A stretch of 64,000 nucleotides of DNA from an uncultured Gemmatimonadota bacterium (GTDB lineage Bacteria; JAAXHH01), in the NCBI GenBank assembly GCA_951812955.1, contig OX638340.1, forward strand, positions 3,360,001-3,424,000. The letters run 5' to 3'. Below, piece by piece: positions 1 through 33,681 of this stretch (position 1 is the first letter of the stretch; each line of letters begins with the position of its first letter). Made by a program: the position numbers and the translations under genes. The notes under the pieces were generated by a model. The model saw only the letters and a program-made list of their open reading frames with translations. It was not told where the DNA came from and searched no databases.

Positions 1-1202
1 CAACGCACGTCGAACTGTCCTCCCTGGCGGCCGCCCTGAACGAAATGGCCGCGCAATCAAAGGAAAGGCTTTCGCAGATCCGGGAAGAAAACGCCCAGCT
101 CGAAGCGGTGCTGTCCGGCATGGCGGAAGGCGTAATGGTGACCTCCGCGGAAGGGCGTATCCTGATGGTCAACCCGGCTTTCAAGCGCATGATGGACGTG
201 GACGCATGGTGCCTGAACAAGCGGCCCATCGAGGTAGTCCGCAACCACGACCTGCAAAGCGTTGTGGAGGCCGCGATCGATTCGGCGCCCTCCCTGCACG
301 AGGATGCCGTGATCGACCTGACGCTGGAGTGGAGCCAGCGCATCTTCCAGGTGCATCTGACCCCTATACGCATCGGCGAGCGGCTTCATGGCGTGGTTGC
401 CGTGTTTCACGACATGACCGAACTGCGCCACCTGGAGCAGGTTCGGAAAGACTTCGTGGCCAACGTGTCCCACGAACTGCGGACGCCCCTGACCTCCATC
501 AAAGGCTATGTCGAAACGTTGCTGGACGGCGCCATGGAGGATTCCGACGCGCTGCGCCGATTTATGACGTCCATCCAGCACCATGCCGACCGGCTGCAGG
601 CGCTGGTCGAGGACCTTCTGCAACTGTCCAGAATAGAGTCGGGCCGGTACGAGGTCGAATTCACGGCCTGCCACCTGGACCGGGTTTCGGAGCGGGTCGC
701 CGAGATCTTCGCGAAGCAGATCGACCGCAAGCAGCTTGTTTTCTCGTTGCGGTTCGAAACGGACAACCCGGCGCGCGGAGACCCCGAACTCATGGAACGG
801 GCCCTGTCCAACCTGGTGGACAACGCCGTGAAATACACGGAGAAAGGCGGATCGATCGCCATCCGCACCGTGGAAAGGGACGACGAAATCATCCTGTCGG
901 TCGCCGATACGGGACCGGGCATACCGTCCGATGCGCTCCCACGTATTTTCGAACGCTTTTTCCGGGTGGACCGGGCACGGTCCAGGGCGCTGGGCGGAAC
1001 AGGCCTGGGTCTCGCGATCGTCCGGCACACCATGGAATTGCTCGGTGGCAAGGCATGGGTCGAGAGCAGGCTCGGCGAAGGCGCGACCTTCTACCTTTCC
1101 CTGCCCGTGTGGGCGGAGGATGAGCAAGCCGGCGATTCGAACCGTGCGCTTCGGACGGCGCGGGAAGAAAACCCCGAAACCCCAACGGGCAGTCAGGCTT
1201 AA
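1..1202 (+). CDS. phoR: Sensor histidine kinase, PhoR-like (5' partial; reading frame is open to position 3 upstream of the listed ATG at 45)
   Basis: PAS-like segment, then HisKA H-box FVANVSHELRTPLTSIKGY, then HATPase_c G-box GGTGLGLAIVRH. No in-frame stop between nt 3 and 45 (VELSSLAAALNEMA looks like a HAMP end). pstCAB-phoU and ppk lie in the same neighbourhood. Confidence 0.6.
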   Translation, partial: THVELSSLAAALNEMAAQSKERLSQIREENAQLEAVLSGMAEGVMVTSAEGRILMVNPAFKRMMDVDAWCLNKRPIEVVRNHDLQSVVEAAIDSAPSLHEDAVIDLTLEWSQRIFQVHLTPIRIGERLHGVVAVFHDMTELRHLEQVRKDFVANVSHELRTPLTSIKGYVETLLDGAMEDSDALRRFMTSIQHHADRLQALVEDLLQLSRIESGRYEVEFTACHLDRVSERVAEIFAKQIDRKQLVFSLRFETDNPARGDPELMERALSNLVDNAVKYTEKGGSIAIRTVERDDEIILSVADTGPGIPSDALPRIFERFFRVDRARSRALGGTGLGLAIVRHTMELLGGKAWVESRLGEGATFYLSLPVWAEDEQAGDSNRALRTAREENPETPTGSQA

Positions 1203-2504: not shown

Positions 2505-4802
2505 TCAGGCTTCCGTCCTGCCCTTCAAAGGAGCCGTCCTCCCCTTCAGGCTTCCGGCCCCACGCGTACGAGCGCGTTTCGAGCCGTTGTTGACCCTGAC
2601 CGTTTCACAGGCCTGTTCGTATAATTCCCTCTGAGACTGTAAACGACTACCCGCCTTCTTCACGTACCGGTACGTTCCATCCGACTGCAATTCCCGCGCC
2701 TTCACGTTGTCCTTCAACTGGATTTTCAAATACGCCCACAGTTCCGCCTGGAGCGCACGGTCGACGACCGGGAAGGAAACTTCAACGCGCCGGTTGAGAT
2801 TCCGGTCCATCCAGTCCGCGCTGGAAAAGTAATACTCCGGGTCTCCGTCGTTGTAGAAATAGAAGAGGCGGACGTGTTCGAGAAACCGGTCGACGATGCT
2901 GATGACGCTGATGTTCTCGCTCAGACCCGGAACACCTGGTCTCAGGCAGCATATGCCCCGAATGATCAGCTGAATCTGCACGCCGGCCTGTGACGCCTGG
3001 TACAGCTCGACGATCATGTCCGGGTCGACGAGCGAATTGATCTTGGCGATTATGAGGGCCGGCTGGCCGTTTCGGGCCCGCTCGCTTTCCCTCCGCAGCC
3101 TTTTAACCATGTCCTCCCGCATCGACGTGGGAGAAAGGATGAGGTGGTGAAAGTGCTTGGGCAGCGCGTAACCCGTCAGCAGGTTGAACAACTGCGTTAC
3201 GTCCTCGCCGAATTCCTCCTTGTCCGTGAACAGGCCGAAATCGGCGTATATCCGTGCCGTCTTGTCGTTGTAATTCCCCGTGCCCAGGTGACAGTAGCGG
3301 TGAATTGCGTCGCCTTCGCGGCGCACCACCAGGCAGGCCTTGCAATGGACCTTTATGCCTGGTATGCCGTAGATGACGTGGGCCCCCGCTTCCTCGAGCT
3401 GCCTTGCCCACTGGATGTTCGCCGCCTCGTCGAACCGGGCCTTCAATTCCAGCAGCACCGATACTTCCTTGCCGTTTTCCGCCGCCCGGGTCAGCGCCCG
3501 TGTAATCGGCGAGTTTGCGCTCACTCGGTACAGCGTCATCTTGATGGCGAGCACGCTGGGGTCTTCCGCCGCTTCCGAAACGAAACGGACTACCGCGTTG
3601 AACTGATGGAAGGGGTGGTGCAGCAGGATGTCTTCCTTCTTGATGGCGTCCCATATGGAAGGGGCTCCCTCGAAGGACATCGCCGGCTGGGGCGGGAAGG
3701 GTTCGTCCATGAGATCCGGCCGGTCGATGGCATCGTAGAACTCGATGAGATCGGAAAAGGCGGTGAAACCCTCCGTGGGGTAAAGGTCCTCCTGCTCCAG
3801 TTCCAGTTCGTCCACCAGGATGTCCAGGACGCGGGTGGATAACTCCGGATCGTACTGCAGCCGGACGGCAGCCCCGTTTCGCCGGTTTCTTATGCCCTCC
3901 TCGATGACCGTCAGCAGGTCCTCCGCGCCTTCCTCCTCGTAGTCCACGTCGGCGTCCCGCGTCACGCGGATCGACGCGCAGTTCAGCACCTCGTAGCCGT
4001 TGTAGAACAGGTCGAGGTTCATGAGGATGACGTCCTCCAGCATGAAGAACGCCTGCCGGCCGTTCTCGGACGGTAGTTCGAGGAATCGCGGCATGACGGA
4101 TGTGGGCAGGTGGATGACTGAAAGGTTTGTGTGGGGAAAGACGGACCGCTGGATCTTCCGGATTTCAGCCACCAGGCAGAGCGTGCCGTTGGCCAGGTAG
4201 GGAAAGGGATGTCCCGGGTCTACCGCCAGCGGGGTCACCACGGGCAGTATGGTCTTCCGGAAGTACTCGTCCAGGTAGGCCTTCTGCGAAGGGCTGAGCT
4301 GTTCGGGCTTGAGTATGTCGATGCCCTGCTCGGTGAGCTGCGGGAAGATCTCGTTGATGAACAAGCCGTGCTGCTTGTTGACCAGTTCGTGCATCCTGGC
4401 CGAAAGGGCGGTCATCACCTCTCTGGGACTCAGGCCGTCCGCGGTCCGCGTGGATTGGATCTGCGCATCGATCTGTCTTTTGACGCCGGCGACGCGGATC
4501 ATGAAGAATTCGTCCAGATTGGTACTGAATATGGCCAGGAACTTCACTCGTTCCAGCAGGGGCACCGACGGATCGAGCGCTTCCTCGAGCACCCGCGCGT
4601 TGAACTCCATCCAGCTGAGTTCCCGGTTGAAGAAGTGCTCCGGGCGCCAGTAGTTCGTCACCAGCGGTGCCGTGGACGGCCGGGGCTTTCGGGTGAAGCG
4701 CCGGCCGGCTCGCTTAGAGGCGATGGTTCGAACCGTTGCGGTCCTGGCGTTGTTTCTTTTTGCAGTTGGCATTACCAGGTCACCAGAGATGATTGCGGAC
4801 AT
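2505..4802 (-). CDS. ppk: Polyphosphate kinase 1 (the true start may be an internal codon; N-terminus is ~40 aa longer than E. coli PPK)
   Basis: Canonical PPK1 N-domain NRELSWMEFNARVLEEA...VKFLAIFSTNLDEFFMIRVAG and PLD-like C-domains, along 765 aa. Confidence 0.9.
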   Translation of the reverse strand: MSAIISGDLVMPTAKRNNARTATVRTIASKRAGRRFTRKPRPSTAPLVTNYWRPEHFFNRELSWMEFNARVLEEALDPSVPLLERVKFLAIFSTNLDEFFMIRVAGVKRQIDAQIQSTRTADGLSPREVMTALSARMHELVNKQHGLFINEIFPQLTEQGIDILKPEQLSPSQKAYLDEYFRKTILPVVTPLAVDPGHPFPYLANGTLCLVAEIRKIQRSVFPHTNLSVIHLPTSVMPRFLELPSENGRQAFFMLEDVILMNLDLFYNGYEVLNCASIRVTRDADVDYEEEGAEDLLTVIEEGIRNRRNGAAVRLQYDPELSTRVLDILVDELELEQEDLYPTEGFTAFSDLIEFYDAIDRPDLMDEPFPPQPAMSFEGAPSIWDAIKKEDILLHHPFHQFNAVVRFVSEAAEDPSVLAIKMTLYRVSANSPITRALTRAAENGKEVSVLLELKARFDEAANIQWARQLEEAGAHVIYGIPGIKVHCKACLVVRREGDAIHRYCHLGTGNYNDKTARIYADFGLFTDKEEFGEDVTQLFNLLTGYALPKHFHHLILSPTSMREDMVKRLRRESERARNGQPALIIAKINSLVDPDMIVELYQASQAGVQIQLIIRGICCLRPGVPGLSENISVISIVDRFLEHVRLFYFYNDGDPEYYFSSADWMDRNLNRRVEVSFPVVDRALQAELWAYLKIQLKDNVKARELQSDGTYRYVKKAGSRLQSQRELYEQACETVRVNNGSKRARTRGAGSLKGRTAPLKGRTEA

Positions 4803-5067
4803 GCGGCGCGTGACGGTCTCGCGCGCACTACCGCATCACGAATGCTGTTCAGATGTCAGCGGACCGGACGGGACCGGATTGGGCCAGACCGGGCCGGATC
4901 AATATGAATTGCGCCCCGGTCCGAGTAACAATAAAGCGGGACGCAAGGCGATGTTGTCAAGCCGTCTTTACCCTGTCGATCGTGTCTAACAAGAAAAATG
5001 CACATTAGTCATATCGTCATTGCGCCGTCATGGTTTTGTCATTCGACATCGTTATAATAAGCCGTGA

Positions 5068-5613
5068 ATGAACGAAGAACTGACAAAGAATCGTGGAGAA
5101 GTCATGCAAAAGAGTCGTGGCGAAGTCATGAAAATGAATGAAGTGTTGGATGTACTTAAAGGAAGCCTGGCCAAGGTAGACGGCATGAAGTTCTTGCTGG
5201 ACTACGAGGATCTCATCTGGCGCATGGCGCCGAACGCCCAATCCGTACAGGCGTTGCTGGAAGATATGGTCGACGCGGAACAGCAACTCTGGTCCGCCCT
5301 GCTGCCAGGGTGCCTGGAATCCCGGCAACGCCGCATCTTTCAAGATCGTCTCCGCGAACGGAATCGATTCTGGCAAAAGAACGACAACCGCCTCGGCATT
5401 TTCAACCAGTTTCTCAGCAACCGGCGCATTACGCTGCTTCTGCTCGAAGATTTAGCGGGAAATGACTGGAACAGGAATGCCCCCGACGGAATGGATGAAG
5501 GATCCGTCGTCGACCAGGTCGATCGCCTGATCGAGCGCCAGAACCAGTGCCTTACCATGATCCAGGGGATACTGAACGAGCGGTTCGAAGCAATGAAGAA
5601 AAGCGCCGTATGA
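5068..5613 (+). CDS. Hypothetical soluble protein (181 aa) inside an AT-rich patch; N-terminus has two copies of a 24-nt repeat (KNRGEVMQ/KSRGEVMK), so several in-frame SD+ATG starts exist
   Basis: ORF with GGAG-like SDs before the ATGs at 5068, 5104 and 5128. No recognisable domain. Local GC is clearly lower than the ~65% flanks. Confidence 0.4.
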   Translation: MNEELTKNRGEVMQKSRGEVMKMNEVLDVLKGSLAKVDGMKFLLDYEDLIWRMAPNAQSVQALLEDMVDAEQQLWSALLPGCLESRQRRIFQDRLRERNRFWQKNDNRLGIFNQFLSNRRITLLLLEDLAGNDWNRNAPDGMDEGSVVDQVDRLIERQNQCLTMIQGILNERFEAMKKSAV

Positions 5614-5671
5614 GGAACCTGGTGTCTACCACCCGATCTCCGGGAATCACGCCATCAATAAACTCTGTCCT

Positions 5672-5727
5672 TGTCATGGCCTTGTATGCTGTTCGTCACA
5701 GAATCGTCAAACAACCTCTTTATAATG
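5672..5727 (+). promoter_or_regulatory. Pho-box-like direct repeats (TTGTCAT / TTGTATG / TCGTCAC at 11-bp phasing) followed by a perfect TATAAT, about 90-145 bp upstream of the TonB receptor gene
   Basis: Heptads begin at 5672, 5683 and 5694 (11-bp period, TGTCA core as in the E. coli CTGTCAT Pho box). TATAAT at 5722-5727. Confidence 0.35.
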
Positions 5728-5816
5728 CCCGTGTCAATCATGTCTATCATACCAGACTCTCGCATAAAACACGCCTGCAATCGGGTTCATAGAACACAAA
5801 CAGAGGGAGATGCCGC

Positions 5817-8759
5817 ATGACGAATGTCTACCTGTTCTGCAATAACCGGATCTCGAAAACCGGGCCGGGCCGTGTGGCCAGGTCGATGCTCGTCGCAGTG
5901 ATCGCCGTCGCGGTCCTGGTGGGCGCGGCCGCGGAGGCCGGCGCACAGCAGTCCGTGGGCCGCATATCCGGAACGATAGTCGACGCGGAGACCGGCGATT
6001 CCCTGATCGGCGCGACGGTGATGGTGGTGGGACTCGAACTTGGCGCGATGGCCGATCTTGAAGGCGCCTTTCTCATCCGAAACGTCCCCGCCGGCCGGCA
6101 CACCATCCTGGTATCCATGATCGGGTACGGGCAGAAGCGGGTCACCGAGATCCAGGTCGACCCCGGACAGGTGAGTCGAATAGACATCGCCGTCGAGCAG
6201 GAACTTCTCGTGGCGGACGTGGTTGAGGTGACGGCCCGGGCCCTGGAAAACACGGAAGCGGCGCTTCTGAAGCGCCGTCAAAACGCCCTTTCCATCAGTG
6301 ACGCCATCAGCGCGGAGGATATCTCGCGGGGCGCACAGGGCGACGTGGCCGCGGCCATGACCCGCGTCACCGGCGCGTCGGTGGTGGACGGCAAGTACGT
6401 CTACATTCGAGGTCTGGGCGAACGGTACAGCACCGCGCAGTTGAACGGCACGACCTTGCCGAGTACCGATCCCAACAGCCAGTCGGTGCAGATGGATATC
6501 TTCGCGACGAACCTGCTGGACAACATCACCACGGAGAAGTCCTTTACGCCGGACAAACCGGGCAACTTCACCGGCGGCAGCGTCAACGTCAAGACCAAGT
6601 CGCTTCCCGAGTCCTTCACCATGTCTTTCTCCACGTCCACGAAATACAACTCCCAGTCTTCCTTCAAGGACATGTTGAGTTACGACGGCGGTGAATACGA
6701 TTTCCTGGGCTTCGACGACGGCACCCGGGATATACCCCTGCCCCTTCAGAATCCCGAGTTGGATATACCCAGCATTACCAGTGCGTTCCGGGACCCGGAA
6801 GCCGCCCAGTTGCTGGATCTCTATTCCAAGTCGTTCGCAGATAAGTCGATGACGCCGACCACAATAAAAGGCGGACTCGGTCAGAGCTACTCATTTTCGA
6901 TGGGAAACCAGACGACGGTTTTCGACCGCCCGTTCGGGATGTTGGGAAGCGTGAGTTACAATCGAAACATTTCGGCGTACGAGAACGGCGTTTCCGGTAT
7001 ATGGAAACGCGTGTCCAGGGAATCCGAGGGGCTGAACAGAGAGCGGTTCGCCACGGACATGAGCGGTTCCGAGGAGGTGCTCTGGGGCGGACTGTTAAAC
7101 GCCACCTACCAACCGAGCATCACGCACGAAATCGGCGCCAACGTGCTATACAATCGCAGCGGTGAGAAGCTGTCCAGGTTTCAAACCGGCGCCTGGCCTT
7201 CCTCCCTGCCCGGCGACAACGTTCGGTACGAGACCCGCGTGCTGTCCTTCATCGAGCGTGAAATGCGTTCCCTGCAGTTCCGCGGCAAACATGTCCTTCC
7301 GTCCGTATCCAACATGGAAATCGAGTGGACCGGCGCTTTCATCAGGTCTACGCAGGACGAACCGGACCTGCGCTACTTCACCAACGAGTTCCGGACGGTC
7401 GACGCGGCCGGCGAAGGAACTCCGGAAGTGGACAGCTATACAATCGCGCTCTCGAACTACGCGGCACCGACGCGATACTTCAGGAATCTGGAAGAATCGA
7501 ACAGGGACTTCAGGCTGGACCTGACGCTGCCTTTCTCCCAGTGGTCCGGACAAACCGCCCGCCTCAAGGTAGGCGGCGCATACCTGGACAAGGACCACAC
7601 CTTCCGCGAGAGACGCTTTTCCTTCTTCCAGGACGACTTGCAGTACAGGAACGATCCATCAGTCTTCTTTTCCTCCGATCGCACCGGGATACTGCCGGCC
7701 GAGCTCCAAACCACCCCCGGCTTTACCCGGTTCGGGAATTTCGTGTCCGAGGATTCCAAACTCAGAAACAATTACGACGGTGATCAGCAAATCGGCGCCG
7801 GTTACCTGATGCTGGACCTGCCGCTCAGCAGGCAACTCAAGGTCGTTGGCGGCGTCCGCTACGAGTCCACCCTGCTGGACGTGGTCAGCCACGACGATTT
7901 GCTTTCGCCAGGCAGCATGGACGAGAAGGACTGGCTACCGTCGATGAACGTGGTGTACCAGGTCGTGGACGACATGAATGTACGAGGCGCTTTCAGCCGT
8001 ACCCTGGCCAGACCTTCGTTCCGCGAACTTGCGCCGTTCGCTTCCTTCCTCTTCGTCGGCGACTACACTTTCGTCGGCAACAGCGAGTTGAAGCGAACCC
8101 TTATCGAGAATTACGATCTCCGCTGGGAGTGGTTTTCACGGCCCGGCGAGATATACGCCCTCAGCTATTTTTACAAGAAGTTCGAAAACCCGATCGAGCG
8201 CGTGATTGTAACCACGAACGGCGAAATCCAGTTTCAGAATGTCGACAATGCATATGTTACGGGCGTGGAAATGGAATTCCGGAAGCAGCTCGACCAGGTC
8301 CATCCGTTTTTGAGCAACTTCCAGATCGGCGGAAATCTCTCCCTGGTCAGGTCCCAGGTGGATATCGCGCAGTCGGAACTCGCCATTATTCGAGCTCTCG
8401 ATCCAACCGCCGGGGACTCCCGAAAATTGCAGGGCCAGTCACCCTACGTGGTAAATATCGATGCCATGTACGACAACCTCGATACCGGGACCCTGGTCAG
8501 CGTTCATTACAACGTGTTCGGCGAAAGACTTGCCGAGGTCAGCACGGGCGGAACGCCGAACGCCTTCGAGCAGCCCGCGGGCATGCTCGATTTCACGGGC
8601 TCGCAGCGGCTCGGAGACCGGGTGACGCTGAAGTTTTCGGCCAAGAACCTCCTCGATCCCGACATCAAGAAAGTCCATCCCTTCAACAACGCGGAGTTCA
8701 TCCGCAGCCTCTACAAGCGGGGAAGAACGTTTACCCTGGGTCTCTCATACGGGATATAG
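5817..8759 (+). CDS. TonB-dependent outer-membrane receptor, SusC-like architecture (CarboxypepD_reg N-domain + plug + 22-strand barrel)
   Basis: SD GAGGGAG before the ATG at 5817. Signal peptide ...AVLVGAAAEAGAQQ. CarbopepD_reg segment ISGTIVDAETGDSLIGATVMVVG...AFLIRNVPAGRHTILVSMIGY. Plug segment VVDGKYVYIRGLGERYSTAQLNG. Barrel ends ...FTLGLSYGI. Confidence 0.8.
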   Translation: MTNVYLFCNNRISKTGPGRVARSMLVAVIAVAVLVGAAAEAGAQQSVGRISGTIVDAETGDSLIGATVMVVGLELGAMADLEGAFLIRNVPAGRHTILVSMIGYGQKRVTEIQVDPGQVSRIDIAVEQELLVADVVEVTARALENTEAALLKRRQNALSISDAISAEDISRGAQGDVAAAMTRVTGASVVDGKYVYIRGLGERYSTAQLNGTTLPSTDPNSQSVQMDIFATNLLDNITTEKSFTPDKPGNFTGGSVNVKTKSLPESFTMSFSTSTKYNSQSSFKDMLSYDGGEYDFLGFDDGTRDIPLPLQNPELDIPSITSAFRDPEAAQLLDLYSKSFADKSMTPTTIKGGLGQSYSFSMGNQTTVFDRPFGMLGSVSYNRNISAYENGVSGIWKRVSRESEGLNRERFATDMSGSEEVLWGGLLNATYQPSITHEIGANVLYNRSGEKLSRFQTGAWPSSLPGDNVRYETRVLSFIEREMRSLQFRGKHVLPSVSNMEIEWTGAFIRSTQDEPDLRYFTNEFRTVDAAGEGTPEVDSYTIALSNYAAPTRYFRNLEESNRDFRLDLTLPFSQWSGQTARLKVGGAYLDKDHTFRERRFSFFQDDLQYRNDPSVFFSSDRTGILPAELQTTPGFTRFGNFVSEDSKLRNNYDGDQQIGAGYLMLDLPLSRQLKVVGGVRYESTLLDVVSHDDLLSPGSMDEKDWLPSMNVVYQVVDDMNVRGAFSRTLARPSFRELAPFASFLFVGDYTFVGNSELKRTLIENYDLRWEWFSRPGEIYALSYFYKKFENPIERVIVTTNGEIQFQNVDNAYVTGVEMEFRKQLDQVHPFLSNFQIGGNLSLVRSQVDIAQSELAIIRALDPTAGDSRKLQGQSPYVVNIDAMYDNLDTGTLVSVHYNVFGERLAEVSTGGTPNAFEQPAGMLDFTGSQRLGDRVTLKFSAKNLLDPDIKKVHPFNNAEFIRSLYKRGRTFTLGLSYGI

Positions 8760-8831
8760 CGCAGAATGACGACTTGCGGGGACGCTCGACCTTTTCAATC
8801 TCAACTGCCAGCTCAATTAAGGAGGAGTAGT

Positions 8832-11800
8832 ATGTTTCGGCGGAATGCCATCGCTGCAATTTTGGTATCGTTGTTTTTACCAGTCCTCGCAGAAGCACAA
8901 TCCAACCCGGTCGTTTCAGTCACAGACTCGGACATCGTGGGTAACGTGACCTTCACGTCGAACAACACGTACCTGCTCTCGGGCCTGGTGTTCGTGGAGG
9001 ATGGCGAGACGCTTACGATCGAACCCGGCACGGTGATCAAGGCGCGTCCGGCGGACGCCGACGGTGTGGTCTCGGCATTGATTGTAGCGCGCGGCGGGAA
9101 GATCTTTGCTGACGGTACGGCGATGGATCCCATCATCTTCACGGCCGAGGCCGACAATGTGGACGATCCGGACGACATCCTGCTCACCTCGGAAGCGGCC
9201 TCGCGGGGGTTGTGGGGCGGCGTGATCATCCTGGGCAGGGCATCGATCAACGCGGCCACGGGCATGAACAACATAGAAGGCATAGACACGACTGAGCCGC
9301 GGGGCATCTACGGCGGCGGCTCGTTCCCCGACGATAACGACAACTCGGGCGTGTTTCGCTACGTGTCGATCCGCCACGGCGGCGCGCGGATCGGAGCGGA
9401 CAACGAGATCAATGGGCTGACGATGGGCGGCGTGGGGCGTGGCACGACGATAGAGCACGTGGAGGTGTTCTACAACCAGGACGACGGGTTCGAGTGGTTC
9501 GGGGGCACGGTGAATACGCGTTACCTGGTGGCGGCCTTTGCCGGCGACGACAGCTTCGACTACGACGAGGGCTTCCGCGGTGAGCACCAGTTCTGGTTCT
9601 CTATCCAGGATCCGGCCGTAGGCGACCACGCCGGCGAGCACGACGGCGGCACCAAGCCGGAGGATGGCAGGCCGTACGCCAGTCCCACGATCCTGAACGC
9701 CACGTACATTGGGCGGGGCGCTTCCTCGATGGGGGGCAAGGCGAATAACGCCCTGATCTTCCGCGACAACGCGGGGGGCATGTATTTCAACAGCATCTTC
9801 ACCGAGTTCCAGGGCCGGATGCTGTCGATCGAGGACCTCGAGGGCAATGCGGGCACGGACAGCCGCGCGCGTCTTGAGGCCGGCGACCTTGCGTTCCAAA
9901 ACAACATCCTGGGTGCCTTCGGCGCGGGCAACACGCCATCGCAACTCGCCGCCGAGTCCGAGGATCACACGGCCATGGTGCTTTCAGATCCCGGGAACAT
10001 GATCCGAATCGTAGATCCACAATTGCAGGGCATCAACTGGAACCGCAACCGGGGGCTGGACCCACGACCCGGTACCAACAGTCCTGCCTGGGATGCGAGC
10101 CAGCTCAAGGAAGAACCCCGGAACACCGGGTTCTTTACGGACGTCGATTACGCAGGGGCATTCGGTACGGAAAACTGGGCGGCGGACTGGTCGGCCCTCG
10201 CGGACCTGGGCTATTTCAGCACCGCACCTCCACCCGAGCCGCCGGAGCCCGGGGTTGTTACTGTCACAGACTCGGACATCGTGGGTAACGTGACCTTCAC
10301 GTCGAACAACACGTACCTGCTCTCGGGCCTGGTGTTCGTGGAGGATGGCGAGACGCTTACGATCGAACCCGGCACGGTGATCAAGGCGCGTCCGGCGGAC
10401 GCCGACGGCGTGGTCTCGGCATTGATTGTAGCGCGCGGCGGGAAGATCTTTGCCGACGGTACGGCGATGGATCCCATCATCTTCACGGCCGAGGCCGACA
10501 ATGTGGACGATCCGGACGACATCCTGCTCACCTCGGAAGCGGCCTCGCGGGGGTTGTGGGGCGGCGTGATCATCCTGGGCAGGGCATCGATCAACGCGGC
10601 CACGGGCATGAACAACATAGAAGGCATAGACACGACTGAGCCGCGGGGCATCTACGGCGGCGGCTCGTTCCCCGACGATAACGACAACTCGGGCGTGTTT
10701 CGCTACGTGTCGATCCGCCACGGCGGCGCGCGGATCGGAGCGGACAACGAGATCAATGGGCTGACGATGGGCGGCGTGGGGCGTGGCACGACGATAGAGC
10801 ACGTGGAGGTGTTCTACAACCAGGACGACGGGTTCGAGTGGTTCGGGGGCACGGTGAATACGCGTTACCTGGTGGCGGCCTTTGCCGGCGACGACAGCTT
10901 CGACTACGACGAGGGCTTCCGCGGTGAGCACCAGTTCTGGTTCTCTATCCAGGATCCGGCCGTAGGCGACCACGCCGGCGAGCACGACGGCGGCACCAAG
11001 CCGGAGGATGGCAGGCCGTACGCCAGTCCCACGATCCTGAACGCCACGTACATTGGGCGGGGCGCTTCCTCGATGGGGGGCAAGGCGAATAACGCCCTGA
11101 TCTTCCGCGACAACGCGGGGGGCATGTATTTCAACAGCATCTTCACCGAGTTCCAGGGCCGGATGCTGTCGATCGAGGACCTCGAGGGCAATGCGGGCAC
11201 GGACAGCCGCGCGCGTCTTGAGGCCGGCGACCTTGCGTTCCAAAACAACATCCTGGGTGCCTTCGGCGCGGGCAACACGCCATCGCAACTCGCCGCCGAG
11301 TCCGAGGATCACACGGCCATGGTGCTTTCAGATCCCGGGAACATGATCCGAATCGTAGATCCACAATTGCAGGGCATCAACTGGAACCGCAACCGGGGGC
11401 TGGACCCACGACCCGGTACCAACAGTCCTGCCTGGGATGCGAGCCAGCTCAAGGAAGAACCCCGGAACACCGGGTTCTTTACGGACGTCGATTACGCAGG
11501 GGCATTCGGTACGGAAAACTGGGCGGCGGACTGGTCGGCCCTCGCGGACCTGGGCTATTTCAGCACCGCACCTCCACCCGAGCCGCCGGAGCCCGGGGAA
11601 CCGGAAGAAGAAGCGCCGGACGCGTTCAGCCTGTCGCAGAACAGTCCGAACCCCTTCGGCATGACCACGAATATAGAGTACGCAGTATCTTCGACGAGCC
11701 ACATACTGATCGAGGTGTACAACATTCGGGGCCAGCGGGTAGCCATGGTCGTTAACGATATCAGGCTTCCGGGGCAGTACTCGGAGATATGGGACGCTCA

Positions 11801-11897
11801 GCACCTTTCAAGCGGCGTATATTTCTACCGCTTCGAGGCTACGGCGGATGGGCGGACCGCCCACGTTTTTAACAGGAAGATGACGCTTCTGAAGTGA
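8832..11897 (+). CDS. T9SS-secreted protein (1021 aa): signal peptide, two near-identical 448-aa modules of unknown function, and a Por-secretion C-terminal sorting domain
   Basis: Strong SD AAGGAGG before the ATG at 8832. Signal peptide MFRRNAIAAILVSLFLPVLAEA. C-terminus LSQNSPNPF...HILIEVYNIRGQRV...SGVYFYRFEA matches the TIGR04183-type T9SS CTD. The internal modules carry no recognisable catalytic motif. Confidence 0.75.
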   Translation: MFRRNAIAAILVSLFLPVLAEAQSNPVVSVTDSDIVGNVTFTSNNTYLLSGLVFVEDGETLTIEPGTVIKARPADADGVVSALIVARGGKIFADGTAMDPIIFTAEADNVDDPDDILLTSEAASRGLWGGVIILGRASINAATGMNNIEGIDTTEPRGIYGGGSFPDDNDNSGVFRYVSIRHGGARIGADNEINGLTMGGVGRGTTIEHVEVFYNQDDGFEWFGGTVNTRYLVAAFAGDDSFDYDEGFRGEHQFWFSIQDPAVGDHAGEHDGGTKPEDGRPYASPTILNATYIGRGASSMGGKANNALIFRDNAGGMYFNSIFTEFQGRMLSIEDLEGNAGTDSRARLEAGDLAFQNNILGAFGAGNTPSQLAAESEDHTAMVLSDPGNMIRIVDPQLQGINWNRNRGLDPRPGTNSPAWDASQLKEEPRNTGFFTDVDYAGAFGTENWAADWSALADLGYFSTAPPPEPPEPGVVTVTDSDIVGNVTFTSNNTYLLSGLVFVEDGETLTIEPGTVIKARPADADGVVSALIVARGGKIFADGTAMDPIIFTAEADNVDDPDDILLTSEAASRGLWGGVIILGRASINAATGMNNIEGIDTTEPRGIYGGGSFPDDNDNSGVFRYVSIRHGGARIGADNEINGLTMGGVGRGTTIEHVEVFYNQDDGFEWFGGTVNTRYLVAAFAGDDSFDYDEGFRGEHQFWFSIQDPAVGDHAGEHDGGTKPEDGRPYASPTILNATYIGRGASSMGGKANNALIFRDNAGGMYFNSIFTEFQGRMLSIEDLEGNAGTDSRARLEAGDLAFQNNILGAFGAGNTPSQLAAESEDHTAMVLSDPGNMIRIVDPQLQGINWNRNRGLDPRPGTNSPAWDASQLKEEPRNTGFFTDVDYAGAFGTENWAADWSALADLGYFSTAPPPEPPEPGEPEEEAPDAFSLSQNSPNPFGMTTNIEYAVSSTSHILIEVYNIRGQRVAMVVNDIRLPGQYSEIWDAQHLSSGVYFYRFEATADGRTAHVFNRKMTLLK
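8919..11606 (+). repeat. Direct tandem duplication, 2 x 1344 bp (copy A 8919-10262, copy B 10263-11606), >99.8% identical over 1336 bp
   Basis: Identical antisense ORFs appear at a 1344-nt offset in the ORF track (8916-9968 vs 9984-11312; 9560-9934 vs 10904-11278). Aligning the plus-strand text by eye finds two mismatches, both synonymous: GGT/GGC near 9075/10419 and GCT/GCC near 9109/10453; the alignment was not checked base by base. Confidence 0.9.
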
Positions 11898-12099
11898 TCC
11901 TGAAGCCGGCATAGTGGGCCGCAACCGGTATACTTCACCGATGCGGACCGTTCAGAGAGTCGATTGGGGCCTCGCGTATGTACTTATGCGGGGCCCTGTT
12001 GTTTTATACGGCGTTCCGCCGGGGTTGACGCGGTACGGGGCCACATCTATTTTTAACACGTTGCCCCCATTGTATCAATCCACTATCCAGGACTATCGG

Positions 12100-13265: not shown

Positions 13266-14693
13266 ATGGGTTCGAAGTGGTCAAAGGATGACGCCTTGAT
13301 CTGGTTGTCCGGGGGGGGTCTGGTCCTCGGCTGCCTGATGGTGGCGGGACTGTTCCTGGTGATCGTCGTACATGGACTGGACCGGTTCTGGCCCCAGGAC
13401 CTGACACGGTACACGCTGCACGACGGCGGGGTTGTCCTGGGCCACGAGGCGTCCCGTGAGGACGTACTTACAACCAACGCCAGGGGTGAGCGTTCTGTGG
13501 CATACCGTTTGAGGATCCGGACCGGTGACCGGGACCGGTATCCGGACGACTACGTCTGGCTGGAGGAAGGCCGCGTCACTTGGCGGGATGTCCCACGCGA
13601 GGCCGTGGTGGTGGAACAGGTTCGGGGCGGGGACTTATTCGGATTCCTGGATTCCTTCGTGGACGATGGCACGGTCGTCGCCCTGGGTTACGATGACGTC
13701 TGGGCACTTTACCAGGAGGGGTACCCGGAACTGGAACGGCTGCGCCGGCAGAGGTCGCTTTCTATCGTCCTGTCTTCGGCGGATGGCCGGCCGAGCACCA
13801 TTTCACTTGCTGACGTCCAGCGGATCTATACGCCAAATGCGATGACGGCGTGGACAAGGATCCGCCACTATATGGCCAGTGCGTGGTCCTACCTGTGGGC
13901 GCCCCCGCGGGACGAAAACCGCCAGGGCGGGGTCTTTCCTGCTGTCTTCGGCACGGCGGCGATGGTCATCCTCATGTCGGTCGTTGTCATGCCCTTCGGC
14001 GTGCTCGCGGCCTTCTACCTGAGAGAATACGGAAAACCGGGTCCGTTCCTGAACGCGGTACGTATCGCCGTAAACAGCCTGGCCGGAGTGCCGTCCATCG
14101 TCTTCGGGGTTTTCGGGCTCGGTTTCTTCGTGTATTTTGTGGGAGGCATCCTGGACCGTCAGTTCTTCCCGGAGGCACTTCCGGGACCGACATTCGGCCG
14201 GGGCGGCATCCTCTGGTGCTCACTGACCCTGGCCTTGCTCACATTGCCCGTGGTCATCGTGGCCGTGGAGGAAGGCCTGGCCGCCGTGCCATCGGGACTC
14301 CGCGAAGCGTCCCATGCCCTGGGTGCGACGCGGTTCGAGACGCTTTGGCGCGTCGTCGTACCCGTGGTGCTGCCATCCATTCTCACGGGTCTGATCCTGT
14401 CCGTGGCGCGGGCGGCCGGTACCGTGGCGCCGCTCATGATCGCCGGGGTCGTCGCCTTTTCTGCCGATTTGCCCGTGGACGGCGAATGGCCGTTCGTGCA
14501 CCTGGATCGCGAGTTCATGCACCTGGGATTTCATATCTTCGACACCGGTTTCAGGCCCGGCGAAGGAGATGCGGCGCTATCCATGGCCTACACTTCCACC
14601 CTGTTGCTGCTGGCCATCGTGGTCGCACTGAACGCGGCGGCGATCGGGCTCAGAAGCCGGTTGAGGAGACACTATTCGCTGGCCGCGCCATAG
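13266..14693 (+). CDS. pstA: Phosphate ABC transporter permease PstA (long form with a large periplasmic insert)
   Basis: C-terminal half matches PstA ([14 protein letters not shown]...[40 protein letters not shown]). Six TM segments. Follows pstC. Confidence 0.85.
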
Positions 14694-14766: not shown

Positions 14767-15564
14767 ATGACGATGGAAAATGCGCCGTTCACGCCGAAGA
14801 TCATGCGCGAAGAAACAATCATCGATGTCGAGAACGTGTCCTTCTGGTACGGGGACAGGGCCGCGCTGAGGAACGTTTCCATGGCGATCGATCGCCATGT
14901 CATCACGGCCTTCATCGGACCGTCAGGCTGCGGCAAGACGACATTGCTGCGGCTGTTCAACCGCATGAACGACCTGGTTCCCCAGACCCGCATGACGGGA
15001 TCGATCCGGATGAACGGAGCAGACATCTACGGCCCGGATACCGACGTCACGCGTCTGCGCCGGCGCGTGGGCATGGTCTTCCAGCAACCGAATCCCTTTC
15101 CCAAGTCGATCTATGAGAACGTAGCCTATGGCCCCCGAATCCATGGGGTGAAGTCCGGGGAATTTCTCGACGAGATCGTGGAACGGTGCCTGCGAAGGAC
15201 GGTGCTGTGGGACGAGGTTCAGGATCGGCTCGAAGAAAGCGCGCTCAAACTCTCCGCCGGACAACAGCAACGGCTTTGTATCGCGCGGGCGGTCGCCGTC
15301 GAACCGGAAGTCCTGCTCATGGACGAGCCGTGCTCGTCACTGGACCCGGTCGCCACGTCCAGGATCGAGGAATTAATGCTTGATCTGAAGGATGATTACA
15401 CCATTGTTATCGTGACACACAATATGCAGCAGGCAGCGCGTGTGTCGGAATACACCGGGTTCATGCTCAAGGGCGAACTGGTGGAAATGGGTGTGACCGA
15501 CGTGATGTTCACCACGCCGGGGGACCGGCGCACGGAGGATTACATTACGGGTCGTGCGGGATAG
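14767..15564 (+). CDS. pstB: Phosphate ABC transporter ATP-binding protein PstB
   Basis: Walker [10 protein letters not shown], signature [15 protein letters not shown], Walker [12 protein letters not shown], and a PstB-type C-terminus. Confidence 0.92.
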
Positions 15565-15595: not shown

Positions 15596-16300
15596 ATGGA
15601 GACCCACCTTCAGCAACAACTGGAAGACCTGAAATCCGCCCTGCTGAGGATGGCGGCGCTGGTCGAGGAACAGATCGCGCGGTCGATTACCGCTATGATG
15701 GAGCGGGACGTGGAATTGTGCGACCAGGTCATCCGCGGAGATCAGCCCATTGACGCCATGGAACTGGAGATCGACGATCAGTGTATCAGGTTGCTTGCTC
15801 TCCAGCATCCCATCGCGCGGGACCTTCGCTTCGTTGCGGCCAGCATGAAGATTACGATCGACCTGGAACGGTTGGGCGACATCGCAGTCAACATCGCCAA
15901 GAAAACGAAACGGCTCGTGGGGATGCCCCTCCTGAAACCGATCGTCGACATTCCGCGCATGGCCGAAATGTCCCAGTCCATGGTGAAGGACAGCCTCAAC
16001 GCCTTCGTCCGCGGAGACGAGCAACTGGCCGTGGACGTCTGCGTAAGGGACGAAGCGGTAAATCAACTGCAGGACCAGGTCTTCCAGGATCTGGTGACTG
16101 CCATGGTGGAAGATTCGGCGACGGTGCCCCAGGCGCTCCAGTTGATCTTCATATCCCGCCACGTCGAACGGCTCGCAGATCACGCCACGAACATCGCCGA
16201 AGGGGTGGTGTATTTCTCAGAAGGCCGCGTGATCAAGCATCATGGGAATGACGATCCGAATCAGCCACCCAATCGTCCAGTATCCGGTGGGCCTGCGTGA
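15596..16300 (+). CDS. phoU: Phosphate signalling complex protein PhoU
   Basis: Two PhoU repeats (...RDLRFVAASMKITIDLERLGDIAVNIAKK... and ...ISRHVERLADHATNIAEGVVY). Directly downstream of pstB. Confidence 0.88.
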   Translation: METHLQQQLEDLKSALLRMAALVEEQIARSITAMMERDVELCDQVIRGDQPIDAMELEIDDQCIRLLALQHPIARDLRFVAASMKITIDLERLGDIAVNIAKKTKRLVGMPLLKPIVDIPRMAEMSQSMVKDSLNAFVRGDEQLAVDVCVRDEAVNQLQDQVFQDLVTAMVEDSATVPQALQLIFISRHVERLADHATNIAEGVVYFSEGRVIKHHGNDDPNQPPNRPVSGGPA

Positions 16301-20790: not shown

Positions 20791-22230
20791 CTACATCTTG
20801 ATACACACGTTCTTGGGTTCCGTGAAGAAACGCAGGGCCTCGATTCCTCCCTCCCGGCCGACCCCCGACTGTTTCATGCCACCGAATGGCGTACGGAGGT
20901 CCCGCAACATCCAGCAGTTGATCCAGATGATGCCGGCGTGCAGACGTTCGGCGACGCGATGGGCCCGGCCCAGGTTTTCGGTCCACAGCATGGCGGCCAG
21001 GCCGTATGGCGTACCGTTGGCCTGGGCGATCACGTCCTCCTCGGTATCGAAAGGCAGGAGCGAAACGACGGGACCGAAGATTTCCTCCTGGTTGGTCCGG
21101 CAGTCCGGTGGCAGGCCTTCGATCACCGTAGGCGCTACGAACCAACCGTCCCGACAGCGCCCGTTTACCCGAACCCGTTGGCCGCCGCAGAGGACCCGCC
21201 CGCCTTCGTCACCGGCCAGTTCGATGTAGGCGAGGATCTTGTCCATGTGGTCCGCGGAAACGACGGCGCCGAGCCGGTTGCCCGCAGACCTTGGATCGCC
21301 GACGGTCAGTTGCCGGGTCCGTTCGACGAAATCGTCCCGAAAGGTGTCGTAGAGCGGCCTTTCGATGAAGATGCGCGGACCGCACAGGCAGATCTCGCCC
21401 TGGTTGGAGAACGAGGAAAGCAGGGCGGTCTGTAATGCATCCTCATAGGGACAGTCCGCGAAGACGATATTCGGGTTTTTCCCGCCCAGTTCGAGGGAAA
21501 TCCGCTTGAATAGGGGCGCGGCCGCGGCCGCGATCTTCCTGCCCGTGTCCGTTCCTCCGGTGAAGGATACTGCGTGAACCCGGGGATGTTCCACCACGGC
21601 CGCTCCCGCCTTGTGGCCGTAGCCGTGCACGATGTTCAGCACACCCGCCGGCAATCCCGCTTCCCTGCAGATCCCGGAGAGCAGGAACGCGGTGGTGGGG
21701 GTAAGTTCGGACGGTTTGCCGATCACGCAGTTTCCGGCGGCCAGCGCCGGCGCGATCTTCCACGTCAGCAGGTAGAGGGGCAGGTTCCAGGGCGATATGC
21801 ACCCGGCGATACCGATGGGGCCGCGCAGGGTATAGTTGAGGGCGCCTTTACCCATGGCGTGGGATTCGCTGGAAAAGTGCTCGATGGCCGTGGCGTAGAA
21901 CCGGAAGTTGCTCGCGGCGCGGGGGATATCCACCGATTCCGCCAGGGCAACGGGTTTGCCCGTATCGTCCGATTCCGCGAGGGCCAATTCATCTCGCCTC
22001 TCCTCGATCAGGTCGGCAATGCGGTGGAGATACCCTGACCGATCCTGGACGGACAGGGATGACCAGTCCGGAAAGGCGTTTTCCGCCGCGTTCACCGCTT
22101 CTTCCACATCCCGGCCGTCCGAGTCGGGAATCCCGCCCAGTACGGTGGCCGTGGCGGGATCGACATTGTCCAGGTAGCCGCCGCCGACCGGTTCGCGCAA
22201 TTCGCCGCCGATGTAATTGAGTATGTGCAT
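20791..22230 (-). CDS. Aldehyde dehydrogenase, probable 2-aminomuconate-6-semialdehyde dehydrogenase (start at the ATG at 22230; the longer ORF to 22329 is rejected)
   Basis: ALDH family: N-terminus MHILNYIGGE, catalytic ELGGKNP and GEICLCGPR(I) Cys motif. Context within the kynurenine operon. Confidence 0.8.
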   Translation of the reverse strand: MHILNYIGGELREPVGGGYLDNVDPATATVLGGIPDSDGRDVEEAVNAAENAFPDWSSLSVQDRSGYLHRIADLIEERRDELALAESDDTGKPVALAESVDIPRAASNFRFYATAIEHFSSESHAMGKGALNYTLRGPIGIAGCISPWNLPLYLLTWKIAPALAAGNCVIGKPSELTPTTAFLLSGICREAGLPAGVLNIVHGYGHKAGAAVVEHPRVHAVSFTGGTDTGRKIAAAAAPLFKRISLELGGKNPNIVFADCPYEDALQTALLSSFSNQGEICLCGPRIFIERPLYDTFRDDFVERTRQLTVGDPRSAGNRLGAVVSADHMDKILAYIELAGDEGGRVLCGGQRVRVNGRCRDGWFVAPTVIEGLPPDCRTNQEEIFGPVVSLLPFDTEEDVIAQANGTPYGLAAMLWTENLGRAHRVAERLHAGIIWINCWMLRDLRTPFGGMKQSGVGREGGIEALRFFTEPKNVCIKM

Positions 22231-22339
22231 TTGCAGAGAGAACCGTCGGGAATGCTGTGTCAGAGACGTCAGGTACGAGCCGCCTCGCAGGGTAACCGGT
22301 AATGTAGACCTGGCCGGACGGCCTGTCAAGCCGGGGGCC

Positions 22340-22466
22340 GCCGCTCACCAAAGCCTCTCCGCGGCCGTTGCCATGCTGTTTCGTGGCCGCTGCTCACCAG
22401 GGCCTCTTCGCGGCCATTGCCCTGCTTCTTCGTGGTCGCCGCTCACCAGGGCCATGCTTCAAAACC
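22340..22466. repeat. 49-bp tandem repeat, ~2.3 copies, in the intergenic region between the KMO and AMSDH genes
   Basis: Units start at 22340, 22389 and 22438: GCCGCTCACCAAAGCCTCTCCGCGGCC... / GCTGCTCACCAGGGCCTCTTCGCGGCC... / GCCGCTCACCAGGGCC (truncated). Confidence 0.7.
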
Positions 22467-22497
22467 ACGCACGCCGTGTTTCACGTGCCTGCCGTCA

Positions 22498-23862: not shown

Positions 23863-23902
23863 GGGTACCCACATTCGGTTCGAAACCGGAATGAAAACCA
23901 GG

Positions 23903-25195: not shown

Positions 25196-25198
25196 GGG

Positions 25199-26251
25199 CT
25201 AAACGGTTTCTCCAAAATACCGGTCGGCTTCCAGGTTCAGCCAGGCCAGGGCGGAGCGGTACAGCAGCCTGGACTTGACGTCATCGTCCAGGTGGTCCAT
25301 GGATTCGATCATCCTGCCGGGCACCGCTTCGCCGAGGGGGAACGGGTAGTCGGAGCCCAGGGCGATGTGGTCCGGGCCGATAAGGTGGATCAGGTAGTCC
25401 AGGATGCGGCTGTCATGGACGAGGGAATCCAGGTAGAATCTGCCCAGGTAGGCACTGGGAAGCACGTCGTTGTCCACCGCGCACAGATCGGGGCGTGTCT
25501 TAAAACCGGAATCGATGCGCCCGATGGTCGCGGGAAAAGAACCACCGCCGTGGGCGAATGCCACGCGCAGCTTCGGCAGGCGCTCGAATACACCGCCGAA
25601 GATCATGGAACAGATCGCCCGGGAAGTCTCGGCCGGCATGCCCACCAGCCAGGGCAGCCAGTACTTCTCCATGGTCTCCTGTCCCATGATGTCCCAGGGA
25701 TGAATGAACACTGCCGCGCCCAGTTCAGCCGCCGCTTCGAACACCGGGAACAGGTGGGGTTCGCTCAGGTTGTTCCCATTGATGTGGGTACCGATCTCAA
25801 TCCCTGAAAGCCCCAGTTCCCGGACGCAACGCTCCATTTCCCGGATGGCCATGTCGGGCGCCTGCATGGGTACGGTGCCCAGGCCGATGAACCTCCGGGG
25901 CCAGGTGTGGATCACTTCGGCAATGTGGTCGTTCAGCATGCGGGACAGGTCCAGCGCGTCCGCCGGCTGGGCCCAGTAGCTAAACATGACCGGGACAGTG
26001 GAAAGGACCTGTACGTGCACGCCCGCTGTTTCGCATTCGCCGAGCCGGGTCAGCGGGTCCCAGGAATTGGCCTGGATTTCGCGGAACCGCCTGCCGTCGA
26101 TCATCATGCGCGCGCAGCCAGGATGGTAATGTTCCAGTTCGACGAATCCGCCGTACCCGTACCGTTTGCGCAGGTCAGGCCAGTTTTCCGGCAGGATATG
26201 GGTGTGGATGTCGATCTTGGGTATGGGCCTGGGGCCGGTGTAGTCGCACAT
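25199..26251 (-). CDS. 2-amino-3-carboxymuconate-6-semialdehyde decarboxylase (ACMSD, amidohydrolase_2)
   Basis: N-terminus KIDIHTHILPENWPDLRKRYGYGGFVELEH parallels human ACMSD. Metal ligands HxH...H...D conserved. 3-nt gap to kynU implies translational coupling. Confidence 0.85.
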   Translation of the reverse strand: MCDYTGPRPIPKIDIHTHILPENWPDLRKRYGYGGFVELEHYHPGCARMMIDGRRFREIQANSWDPLTRLGECETAGVHVQVLSTVPVMFSYWAQPADALDLSRMLNDHIAEVIHTWPRRFIGLGTVPMQAPDMAIREMERCVRELGLSGIEIGTHINGNNLSEPHLFPVFEAAAELGAAVFIHPWDIMGQETMEKYWLPWLVGMPAETSRAICSMIFGGVFERLPKLRVAFAHGGGSFPATIGRIDSGFKTRPDLCAVDNDVLPSAYLGRFYLDSLVHDSRILDYLIHLIGPDHIALGSDYPFPLGEAVPGRMIESMDHLDDDVKSRLLYRSALAWLNLEADRYFGETV

Positions 26252-27464: not shown

Positions 27465-27469
27465 CGAGA

Positions 27470-28879: not shown

Positions 28880-28888
28880 GGTTCCGTT

Positions 28889-30277: not shown

Positions 30278-30340
30278 GAGGGCTCCTGTTGGTATGCAAT
30301 CTGGACGTTCTACAACCGGTCTGGATGTTCATCAACCGGT

Positions 30341-33669: not shown

Positions 33670-33681
33670 TTATACCCTCCG

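Follow-up and report, generated by a model that had tools for sequence, protein, structure and literature searches.

Anatomy of the beta-helix gene and its product

The window, a stretch of 64,000 nucleotides from an uncultured Gemmatimonadota bacterium (contig OX638340.1), carries on its forward strand an open reading frame (ORF) at 8832-11897, situated between a gene coding for a TonB-dependent receptor and the phosphate transport genes pstC, pstA, pstB and phoU. These are the flanks that the first-pass annotation, made from the sequence alone, had given it. Inspection of the upstream nucleotides indicated that the ORF is a real gene, hereafter the beta-helix gene: an AGGAGG ribosome-binding site (8820-8825) precedes the ATG, and the start methionine is the same in the homologue P0002, which is 98% identical. 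The deduced product of 1021 amino acids consists of a signal peptide, two modules, an acidic Pro/Glu linker and a T9SS (type IX secretion system) C-terminal sorting domain (CTD). The comparison of the repeats and the domain matches agreed with the layout of signal peptide, two 448-aa modules and CTD that had been read earlier. The coordinates of all features are given in Table 1.

The two modules are arranged head-to-tail and in frame with a period of 1344 nt, and only five mismatches were found in 1346 nt (99.63% identity). Two of these are synonymous third-position changes, while the remaining three are located at the junction and give rise to a single residue change, S to T. The period is above the limit of Tandem Repeats Finder, and the repeat was detected by offset comparison and blastn. 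Each of the three motifs previously quoted from the protein occurs twice, and the module is rich in Gly and Asp as had been stated (13.4% Gly, 8.9% Asp, pI 4.2).

The CTD scored above the cut-off of both models, with 28.1 bits for PF18962 (cut-off 27) and 29 bits for TIGR04183 (cut-off 23). The protein therefore combines the two features of T9SS type A cargo, an N-terminal Sec signal peptide and a sorting domain above threshold, and the earlier proposal that it is exported by the T9SS is supported at the level of predicted signals. The full-length AlphaFold2 model (pLDDT 82, pTM 0.55) showed two separate beta-helices, low-confidence linkers and then the CTD, which folds as a seven-strand beta-sandwich (aa 933-1019); at this pTM the model is uninformative on the placement of the modules relative to each other.

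Family membership and fold

A phmmer search returned more than 7,000 homologous proteins, the best 120 of which had E values of 0 to 1e-141 and all carried a precomputed PF28492 (Beta_helix_4) annotation. The accession is newer than the Pfam release used for the window scans, and the PF28492 assignment of the window protein rests on the annotation of these homologues and not on scoring against the PF28492 model. An exhaustive HMMER scan yielded 6,731 clusters (50% identity) at E <= 1e-3 and 2,672 at E <= 1e-30, and identities of 40-60% were conserved across phyla. Judged from its homologues, the beta-helix protein is a member of the large PF28492 family. The idea of a candidate new family was refuted by the number of homologues, by the existing Pfam entry and by what appear to be prior descriptions from 2010, 2020 and 2023. 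The family is thus known yet uncharacterised, and the interest of this member lies in three features: a T9SS anchor and not a lipid anchor, the place directly upstream of pstCAB-phoU with Pho-box-like promoter elements before the pair, and the near-perfect duplication of the module. A literature search for the accession PF28492 returned no papers.

Pfam and NCBIfam scans of the protein with the release lacking PF28492 gave no match except the CTD; matches of the module to DHFR_2/DfrB and DUF6059 fell below threshold and were discarded as noise. No Pfam or NCBIfam match to a phosphatase, nuclease, phytase, PstS or PhoA/PhoD/PhoX/PafA was found in the module, no Pfam match to SusD (PF07980/PF14322) was found in the protein, and a profile search of all PDB sequences with the module family gave no match at E <= 1. 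These searches confirmed the absence of phosphatase, nuclease, phytase and SusD signatures that had been noticed from the sequence. Likewise, neither a profile match to the beta-helix polysaccharide lyases and glycoside hydrolases (PL1/3/6/9, GH28, AlgE-type) nor a transferable catalytic motif of these enzymes was found.

The confident AlphaFold model of the module is a right-handed parallel beta-helix without a close solved relative, which settled the choice between the two folds proposed initially. Foldseek, which had been named as a check, was run on the one-module model and retrieved generic beta-helix matches only, the top ones being alginate epimerase/lyase, PL6 and PL9 lyases, GH28 hydrolases and tailspike depolymerases. 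The identities were only 7-14% and the TM-score did not exceed 0.33, so that the similarity is generic to the fold; the structural alignment covers about 260 residues and the last third of the module (aa ~300-451) lies outside it. The same range of identity, with no match at the sequence level, applied to AlgE4/AlgG epimerases, PL6, PL9, GH28, tailspike depolymerases and NosD.

Alignment of 110 modules revealed ten near-invariant acidic residues, E169, D194, D195, E198, D216, D217, D220, D222, E246 and D248, and further near-invariant residues at R158, R288, N266, T268 and N297. Since the invariant residues are spaced 20-29 residues apart, which corresponds to one coil of the beta-helix, they should line one face as a ladder over four to six coils. 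The predicted dense acidic groove almost certainly carries cations. The part of the first-pass annotation that suggested metal or Ca2+ binding is therefore in keeping with the conserved acidic ladder, which could bind cations.

Receptor pairing and phosphate genes in related loci

The neighbours of the beta-helix gene within 8 kb were counted in 80 related genomic loci (numbered with the prefix L) from about ten phyla, comprising Gemmatimonadota, Ignavibacteria/Melioribacteraceae, Bacteroidota, Rhodothermia/Balneolales, Verrucomicrobiota, Fibrobacterota, KSB1, Zixibacteria, Latescibacterota and Acidobacteriota. In 66 of the 80 loci the beta-helix gene adjoins the gene of a receptor homologous to that of the window, and in most of the remaining 14 a contig end cuts off the neighbourhood. 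The pairing also occurs in Proteobacteria; the receptor of the alphaproteobacterial locus L083 and that of the window share 26% identity over about 900 aa.

Clustering of the flanking ORFs placed OmpR/PhoB-type response regulators nearby in 15 loci and PhoR-like kinases in nine. Genes for pstS, pstC, pstA, pstB or phoU were nearby in ten loci belonging to at least four phyla, a PHO4/PiT transporter in five, ppk1 in five and a porin-like outer-membrane protein in seven, while no recurrent phosphatase, nuclease or phosphodiesterase family was found among the flanking ORFs of the 80 loci. Whatever the phylum, the partner in the inner membrane is always a transporter of inorganic phosphate, which points to TonB-dependent uptake of phosphate or simple phosphate species. 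The role in phosphorus handling at the cell surface that had been suggested from the position of the gene thus gained support from neighbourhoods in several phyla, from the Pho-box-like elements and from literature on what is presumed to be the same family, both described below.

In locus L003 (9378-11249), whose beta-helix protein is a 77%-identical relative, pstB and phoU directly follow the beta-helix gene and the locus is without pstC and pstA. In the Bacteroidales loci L050 (6851-9221), L060 (6812-9197), L071 (6853-9218) and L064, a 335-aa porin-like protein without Pfam match precedes a lipoprotein form of the beta-helix protein. A PHO4 transporter is nearby in three of these four porin-type loci (L050, L060 and L064), and L050 and L060 also have a PhoB-like regulator. 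A porin may thus be another partner of the beta-helix protein.

Gene neighbourhood in the window

The stop codon of the receptor gene is separated from the start of the beta-helix gene by 72 nt, and both genes lie on the same strand. Against the SusC family model TIGR04056 the receptor scored just 35.8 bits (cut-off 368). The sensor histidine kinase at the left end of the window scored 387 bits with NCBIfam PnpS and 303 bits with PhoR (TIGR02966), both slightly under the cut-off, and is syntenic in L001-L003.

An overlooked pstS beside the beta-helix gene was considered and rejected after tblastn of the window found none, although a search with an E. coli PstS query is a weak test; the same query did find pstS in L009, L024 and L065, where it was later confirmed by Pfam. 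The possibility that the beta-helix protein generally replaces PstS was also rejected, because pstS adjoins the receptor/beta-helix pair in Verrucomicrobiota, Ignavibacteria and Sphingobacteriales. A gene for a PHO4/PiT-family phosphate transporter (408 bits) was found at 54416-55678 on the reverse strand, about 40 kb from the pst locus; since it shares one window with that locus, the organism has both types of phosphate importer.

Table 1. Coordinates of the beta-helix gene, its parts and the associated genes and signals in the window
Feature	Position	Strand	Evidence or remarks
PhoR-type sensor histidine kinase	45..1202	+	Pfam domains PAS, HisKA, HATPase_c
ppk1, polyphosphate kinase 1	2505..4802	-	TIGR03705 883 bits; four PPK Pfam domains
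Pho-box-like array 1	5015..5042	+	Three YGTCAT repeats, 11-bp spacing; TATAAT 5053-5058, then ORF 5068-5613
Pho-box-like array 2	5671..5726	+	TGTCAT, TGTATG, CGTCAC, CGTCAA, 11-bp spacing; hexamers 5671-5712, TATAAT 5721-5726
TonB-dependent receptor	5817..8759	+	N-terminal CarboxypepD_reg (PF13620/PF13715), plug (PF07715), barrel (PF00593, PF14905)
Sec signal peptide, aa 1-22 (MFRRNAIAAILVSLFLPVLAEA|Q)	8832..8897	+	Read from sequence; N-terminal helix aa 2-19 in full-length model
Beta-helix module 1, aa 27-474, PF28492 (Beta_helix_4) family	8910..10253	+	Repeat comparison, homologues, model
Beta-helix module 2, aa 475-922	10254..11597	+	99.6% DNA identity to module 1; full-length model
Acidic Pro/Glu linker, T9SS type A CTD and stop codon	11598..11897	+	Pfam match aa 939-1004, nt 11646-11843
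Intrinsic-terminator-like hairpin and T-run between beta-helix gene and pstC	11965..12007	+	14 pairs, 8 G-C; hairpin 11965-11998
pstC, start revised to ATG 12100, 376 aa	12100..13230	+	TIGR02138 213 bits
pstA	13266..14693	+	TIGR00974 213 bits
pstB	14767..15564	+	TIGR00972 386 bits
phoU	15596..16300	+	TIGR02135 216 bits

Pho-box-like arrays and predicted transcription signals

Both Pho-box-like arrays are located in the intergenic region between ppk1 and the receptor gene, and each is followed after about 10 nt by a perfect TATAAT. We take hexamers at 11-bp spacing followed by TATAAT to be the classical Pho-box arrangement of E. coli. A pair pattern gave two matches where 0.15 were expected, both in this intergenic region, and the three-repeat pattern occurred just five times in about 1.3 Mb (window and fetched loci). 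In four of the five cases, found in L001, in L003, in the verrucomicrobial L009 and in the window, the pattern immediately precedes the receptor gene, while the fifth is the window array at 5015, in the same intergenic region and before ORF 5068. Array 2 is about 90 nt upstream of the receptor gene; L001 and L002 have conserved this block, and L003 and L009 have an array equivalent to it. When phosphate is limiting, PhoB probably activates both the receptor gene and the beta-helix gene via these putative Pho-box-type promoters.

Directly behind array 1 lies ORF 5068-5613, deduced to code for a hydrophilic product of 181 aa. Neither Pfam nor NCBIfam matched it, none of the fetched loci contains a homologue, and L001-L003 are without the insertion of about 650 nt between ppk1 and the receptor gene that holds it. 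ORF 5068-5613 may be a lineage-specific phosphate-regulated gene or no gene at all.

The hairpin between the beta-helix gene and pstC folds with -51 kcal/mol (z = -2.35), and the longest pstC ORF, starting from GTG 11914, runs through it. Since this strong hairpin follows the stop codon of the beta-helix gene, pstC most likely starts at ATG 12100 and not at GTG 11914; the ATG start agrees with how the gene was called in L085 and L086 and with the offset between the window and L086. From the hairpin and the revised pstC start it follows that the receptor/beta-helix pair may be a transcription unit of its own and more strongly expressed. A sigma-70-like match at 12025-12053 (TTGACG, 17 nt, TATTTT) could be a separate pst promoter.

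Relation to described proteins

Three groups of described proteins resemble the window protein. The Flavobacterium johnsoniae proteins FI, FII and FIII (Fjoh_3856, Fjoh_0546 and Fjoh_4889) were reported as 'hypothetical lipoproteins' with the pectin-lyase fold IPR011050, and they adjoin receptors whose Pfam domain set is shared by the window receptor. Their genes are among those most induced by phosphate depletion, FI reaching 18.7% of the exoproteome; they were reported to be homologous to Caulobacter ElpS, and binding or hydrolysis of plant cell-wall polymers was proposed for them (Lidbury et al. 2020, PMC8115612). Phosphate starvation induces ElpS of Caulobacter crescentus (CC_0170), a surface lipoprotein that is released by proteolysis and whose gene adjoins the receptor gene cc0171, reported as constitutively expressed, and a type II secretion cluster. 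Overexpression of ElpS led to more phosphatase activity in the culture supernatant, while refolded or immunoprecipitated ElpS had no phosphatase activity on pNPP (Le Blastier et al. 2010, PMC2996285). BT4056 of Bacteroides thetaiotaomicron was described as a putative 'lid' on the outer face of the receptor BT4055; it shares 40% identity with Fjoh_0546 and is a distant relative of ElpS, and 621 genera conserve the pairing with the receptor (Price and Arkin 2023, bioRxiv 10.1101/2023.03.17.533168).

A tblastn search of plasmid and chromid records identified homologues of the window module in Proteobacteria and Bacteroidales, with identities of 25-41%. In Indioceanicola and Sphingomonas (L083 and L088) the lipoprotein gene is followed by the receptor gene and then gspN/gspD(/gspE), the architecture reported for elpS, and in Parabacteroides and Bacteroides finegoldii the homologue is placed behind a receptor as BT4056 is behind BT4055. 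BT4056 and Fjoh_0546 were not among the matches listed in homologue searches seeded with L050 (Bacteroidaceae) and L063 (Schleiferiaceae). Based on shared properties and locus architecture, and not on alignment, the window family is very probably the ElpS / FI-FIII / BT4056 family.

ElpS and CC_0171 share with the window pair an extracytoplasmic, surface-exposed protein of about 45-50 kDa per module without a classical domain, a gene adjoining that of a TonB-dependent receptor and a tie to phosphate starvation; for the window pair, this tie and the surface exposure are predicted. ElpS differs in being a lipoprotein freed by a type II secretion-dependent protease, whereas the window protein has a Sec signal peptide and a T9SS CTD, consists of two modules and is encoded beside pstCAB-phoU. 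The likeness to ElpS itself is known by description, and identities of 30-41% to the window module were measured for the proteobacterial homologues included in the comparison. FI/FII/FIII and BT4056 have in common with it the pectin-lyase-type beta-helix, until recently without a Pfam entry, and a non-SusC receptor with CarboxypepD_reg, Plug and OMP_b-brl_3 as in the window; strong induction by phosphate depletion and abundance in the exoproteome belong to their description. They are lipid-anchored and single-module, unlike the window protein with its T9SS CTD anchor and its place beside pstCAB-phoU, and the Flavobacterium genes lie in the phoBR operon or in 'PUS' clusters of genomes that are often without pstSCAB. 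The Bacteroidales and Flavobacteriales members of the window family are lipoproteins of about 450 aa and are 42-50% identical to the window module.

The arrangement follows the same logic as SusD lids, SusE/F and BtuG-BtuB, where a surface protein beside a TonB-dependent transporter captures the substrate, and the tandem modules recall the SusE/F surface glycan-binding proteins. The fold differs, being a beta-helix here as opposed to TPR-like in SusD, Ig-like/CBM in SusE/F and a beta-propeller in BtuG, and the window receptor, unlike that of SusC-type systems, is not of the SusC family.

Proposed function and alternatives

Few surface proteins of Bacteroidota and their relatives and of many Proteobacteria are as widespread, or as strongly induced by phosphate starvation, as those of this family. 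The Gemmatimonadota locus offers an unusually clean clue in that Pho-box-like repeats, receptor, beta-helix gene and pstCAB-phoU stand in sequence with no pstS detected nearby. We consider it moderately probable that the beta-helix protein is a T9SS-exported surface protein that captures its ligand for the TonB-dependent uptake of phosphorus and thereby supplies Pst. At low phosphate, PhoB would activate the receptor and beta-helix genes through the Pho-box-type promoters, and the T9SS would place the two-module protein, strung on its Pro/Glu linkers, on the cell surface. There the modules would capture a phosphorus-containing ligand in the Asp/Glu-lined groove, probably via bridging cations; inorganic phosphate or a cation-phosphate, pyrophosphate or polyphosphate species would be the most likely ligand. 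The beta-helix protein would then pass the ligand to the receptor, which would import it with TonB energy, and the periplasmic phosphate would enter the cell through PstCAB. The analysis shows the anatomy of the protein, its fold and family, the conserved pairing with the receptor, the recurrence of phosphate genes nearby and the repeat arrays; from these we infer the Pho regulation in the window organism, binding rather than catalysis, which ligand is bound and its transfer to the receptor. If true, TonB-dependent phosphate uptake would change the view of how phosphate crosses the outer membrane in oligotrophic environments.

A more far-reaching version, which we think unlikely as a whole, holds that the pair is a TonB-energised high-affinity outer-membrane route for inorganic phosphate or cation-phosphate, with the beta-helix protein as an extracellular 'phosphophore' bearing a cation-loaded groove. 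Such a route would be distinct from phosphate porins, would directly feed PstCAB or PiT and would have its number of modules quickly tuned by tandem duplication and gene conversion.

Several points weigh against a capture partner for phosphorus uptake. No family member has a demonstrated ligand, and an acid-dominated groove does not readily suggest a phosphate site in the absence of bridging cations. Conserved ladders of Asp, Glu and Arg in a beta-helix usually mark an enzyme. Proteins of two to five modules fit a strict one-to-one receptor 'lid' poorly, few high-confidence AlphaFold-Multimer contacts were reported for BT4055/BT4056 (bioRxiv 10.1101/2023.03.17.533168), and in some Bacteroidales loci a porin-like protein takes the place of the TonB-dependent receptor, none being present within 8 kb. 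In the window, the scan of about 45 ORFs, to which the search for the machinery was confined, found no T9SS component, and co-transcription of the beta-helix gene with pst is not assured because the terminator-like hairpin separates them. The probable identity with the ElpS, FI-FIII and BT4056 family was deduced from published descriptions and locus architecture.

The main rival explanation, which we regard as possible but doubtful, is that the modules are enzymes. A beta-helix depolymerase, lyase or phosphodiesterase, secreted or at the surface, would cut an anionic polymer that contains phosphorus, such as teichoic acid, phosphoglycan, extracellular DNA or polyphosphate, and the receptor would import the fragments for dephosphorylation in the periplasm. 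Carbohydrate-active beta-helix enzymes account for all the best structural matches, but this likeness is as generic as the low identities and TM-scores indicate, and no sequence match to a catalytic family of Pfam or NCBIfam or to a PDB chain was found. Ca-dependent pectate lyases have an Asp/Glu ladder with Arg comparable to the invariant Asp/Glu ladder and conserved Arg of the modules. The conservation of 40-60% identity across phyla is typical of enzymes, and tandem identical modules suit a multi-site enzyme or a capture device more than a one-to-one lid. The increase of supernatant phosphatase activity upon ElpS overexpression and the cell-wall polymer binding or hydrolysis proposed by Lidbury et al. 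also favour an enzyme; on the other side, ElpS itself lacked activity on pNPP. A periplasmic phosphatase or phosphodiesterase does not recur in the 80 neighbourhoods, where inorganic-phosphate transporters do.

It is also conceivable, although we judge it improbable, that the protein is an accessory of a receptor for a non-phosphorus nutrient, for example a metal cation, and that the proximity to pst is incidental or due to indirect co-regulation. Most characterised TonB-dependent receptors import metal chelates, and the groove is strongly acidic. Strictly phosphate-specific genes lie within 8 kb in just 16 of the 80 loci, and the elpS-linked receptor gene cc0171 was reported to be constitutive. 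These observations have to be set against a linkage to phosphate that is found independently in at least four phyla via different genes (pstSCAB, PHO4, ppk1 and PhoB/PhoR-like), against the Pho-box-like arrays upstream of the receptor gene in both Gemmatimonadota and Verrucomicrobiota, and against the specific induction of FI/FII/FIII and ElpS by phosphate starvation.

Duplication and evolution of the modules

Since the closest relatives of the window protein (77-98% identity) are single-module proteins of 571-577 aa, and since L086, a short-read assembly at 98% identity, is without exactly one repeat unit, the two-module structure might be taken for an assembly artefact of a gene that is in truth single-module. 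We hold this to be very improbable. The copies are in frame and differ at five positions, as artefactual duplication would not give, and L085, an independent locus at 84% identity, has two modules with the same PG|VVT junction and a mutual DNA identity of 86-92%. Proteins of two to five modules are common across the family and the two-module layout is recurrent. Short-read assemblies moreover tend to collapse near-identical repeats of 1.3 kb, which makes the single-module relatives the more suspect ones; L086 may be such a collapsed assembly.

Comparison of modules indicated that in 20 of 22 multi-module cases, the window included, sister modules of a protein resemble each other (67-100% identity) more closely than they resemble those of any other locus; loci noted for such near-identical modules also include L004, L006, L025 and L078. 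Tandem copies with 100% DNA identity were found in two loci, L011 at 8013-10579 and L044 at 4517-7195 (1277 and 1326 nt). Four Melioribacteraceae (L011, L013, L018 and L019) have the same two-module architecture, with 83-100% identity within the protein versus 70-71% between species. This homogeneity suggests concerted evolution (gene conversion) or recurrent duplication, of which the window duplication is an extreme and very recent example.

The T9SS CTD is one of several interchangeable anchors, as lipoprotein forms and other C-terminal domains exist in the family. Other lineages carry a lipobox, so that the phyla have the beta-helix in common and differ in the anchor. In Verrucomicrobiota (L008, L009, L012, L065, L070 and L079) the T9SS CTD is replaced by a different, conserved C-terminal domain of about 150 aa ending in ...EVYE[IV][DK] and without Pfam match. 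The motif F..V.Y.GAF...W..GWT at the C-terminus of the module is also found as a stand-alone copy before module 1, at the N-termini of L011, L013, L018 and L019 and at aa 100-131 of L088 (Sphingomonas), which may point to an element for strand-swapping or capping, or else to circular permutation.

Other genes of the window

Three further regions of the window were annotated. A kynurenine-pathway-like cluster (aldehyde dehydrogenase, FAD monooxygenase, kynureninase and amidohydrolase) lies at 20791-27464, and three PhyH-family dioxygenases, a sulfatase, an amino-acid permease and two enolase-superfamily enzymes lie at 26493-44316; both regions are unrelated to the beta-helix gene. At 46280-49087 on the forward strand, a protein of 935 aa is encoded in which WD40-like (PD40) beta-propeller repeats form a fusion with a Ser/Thr protein kinase.

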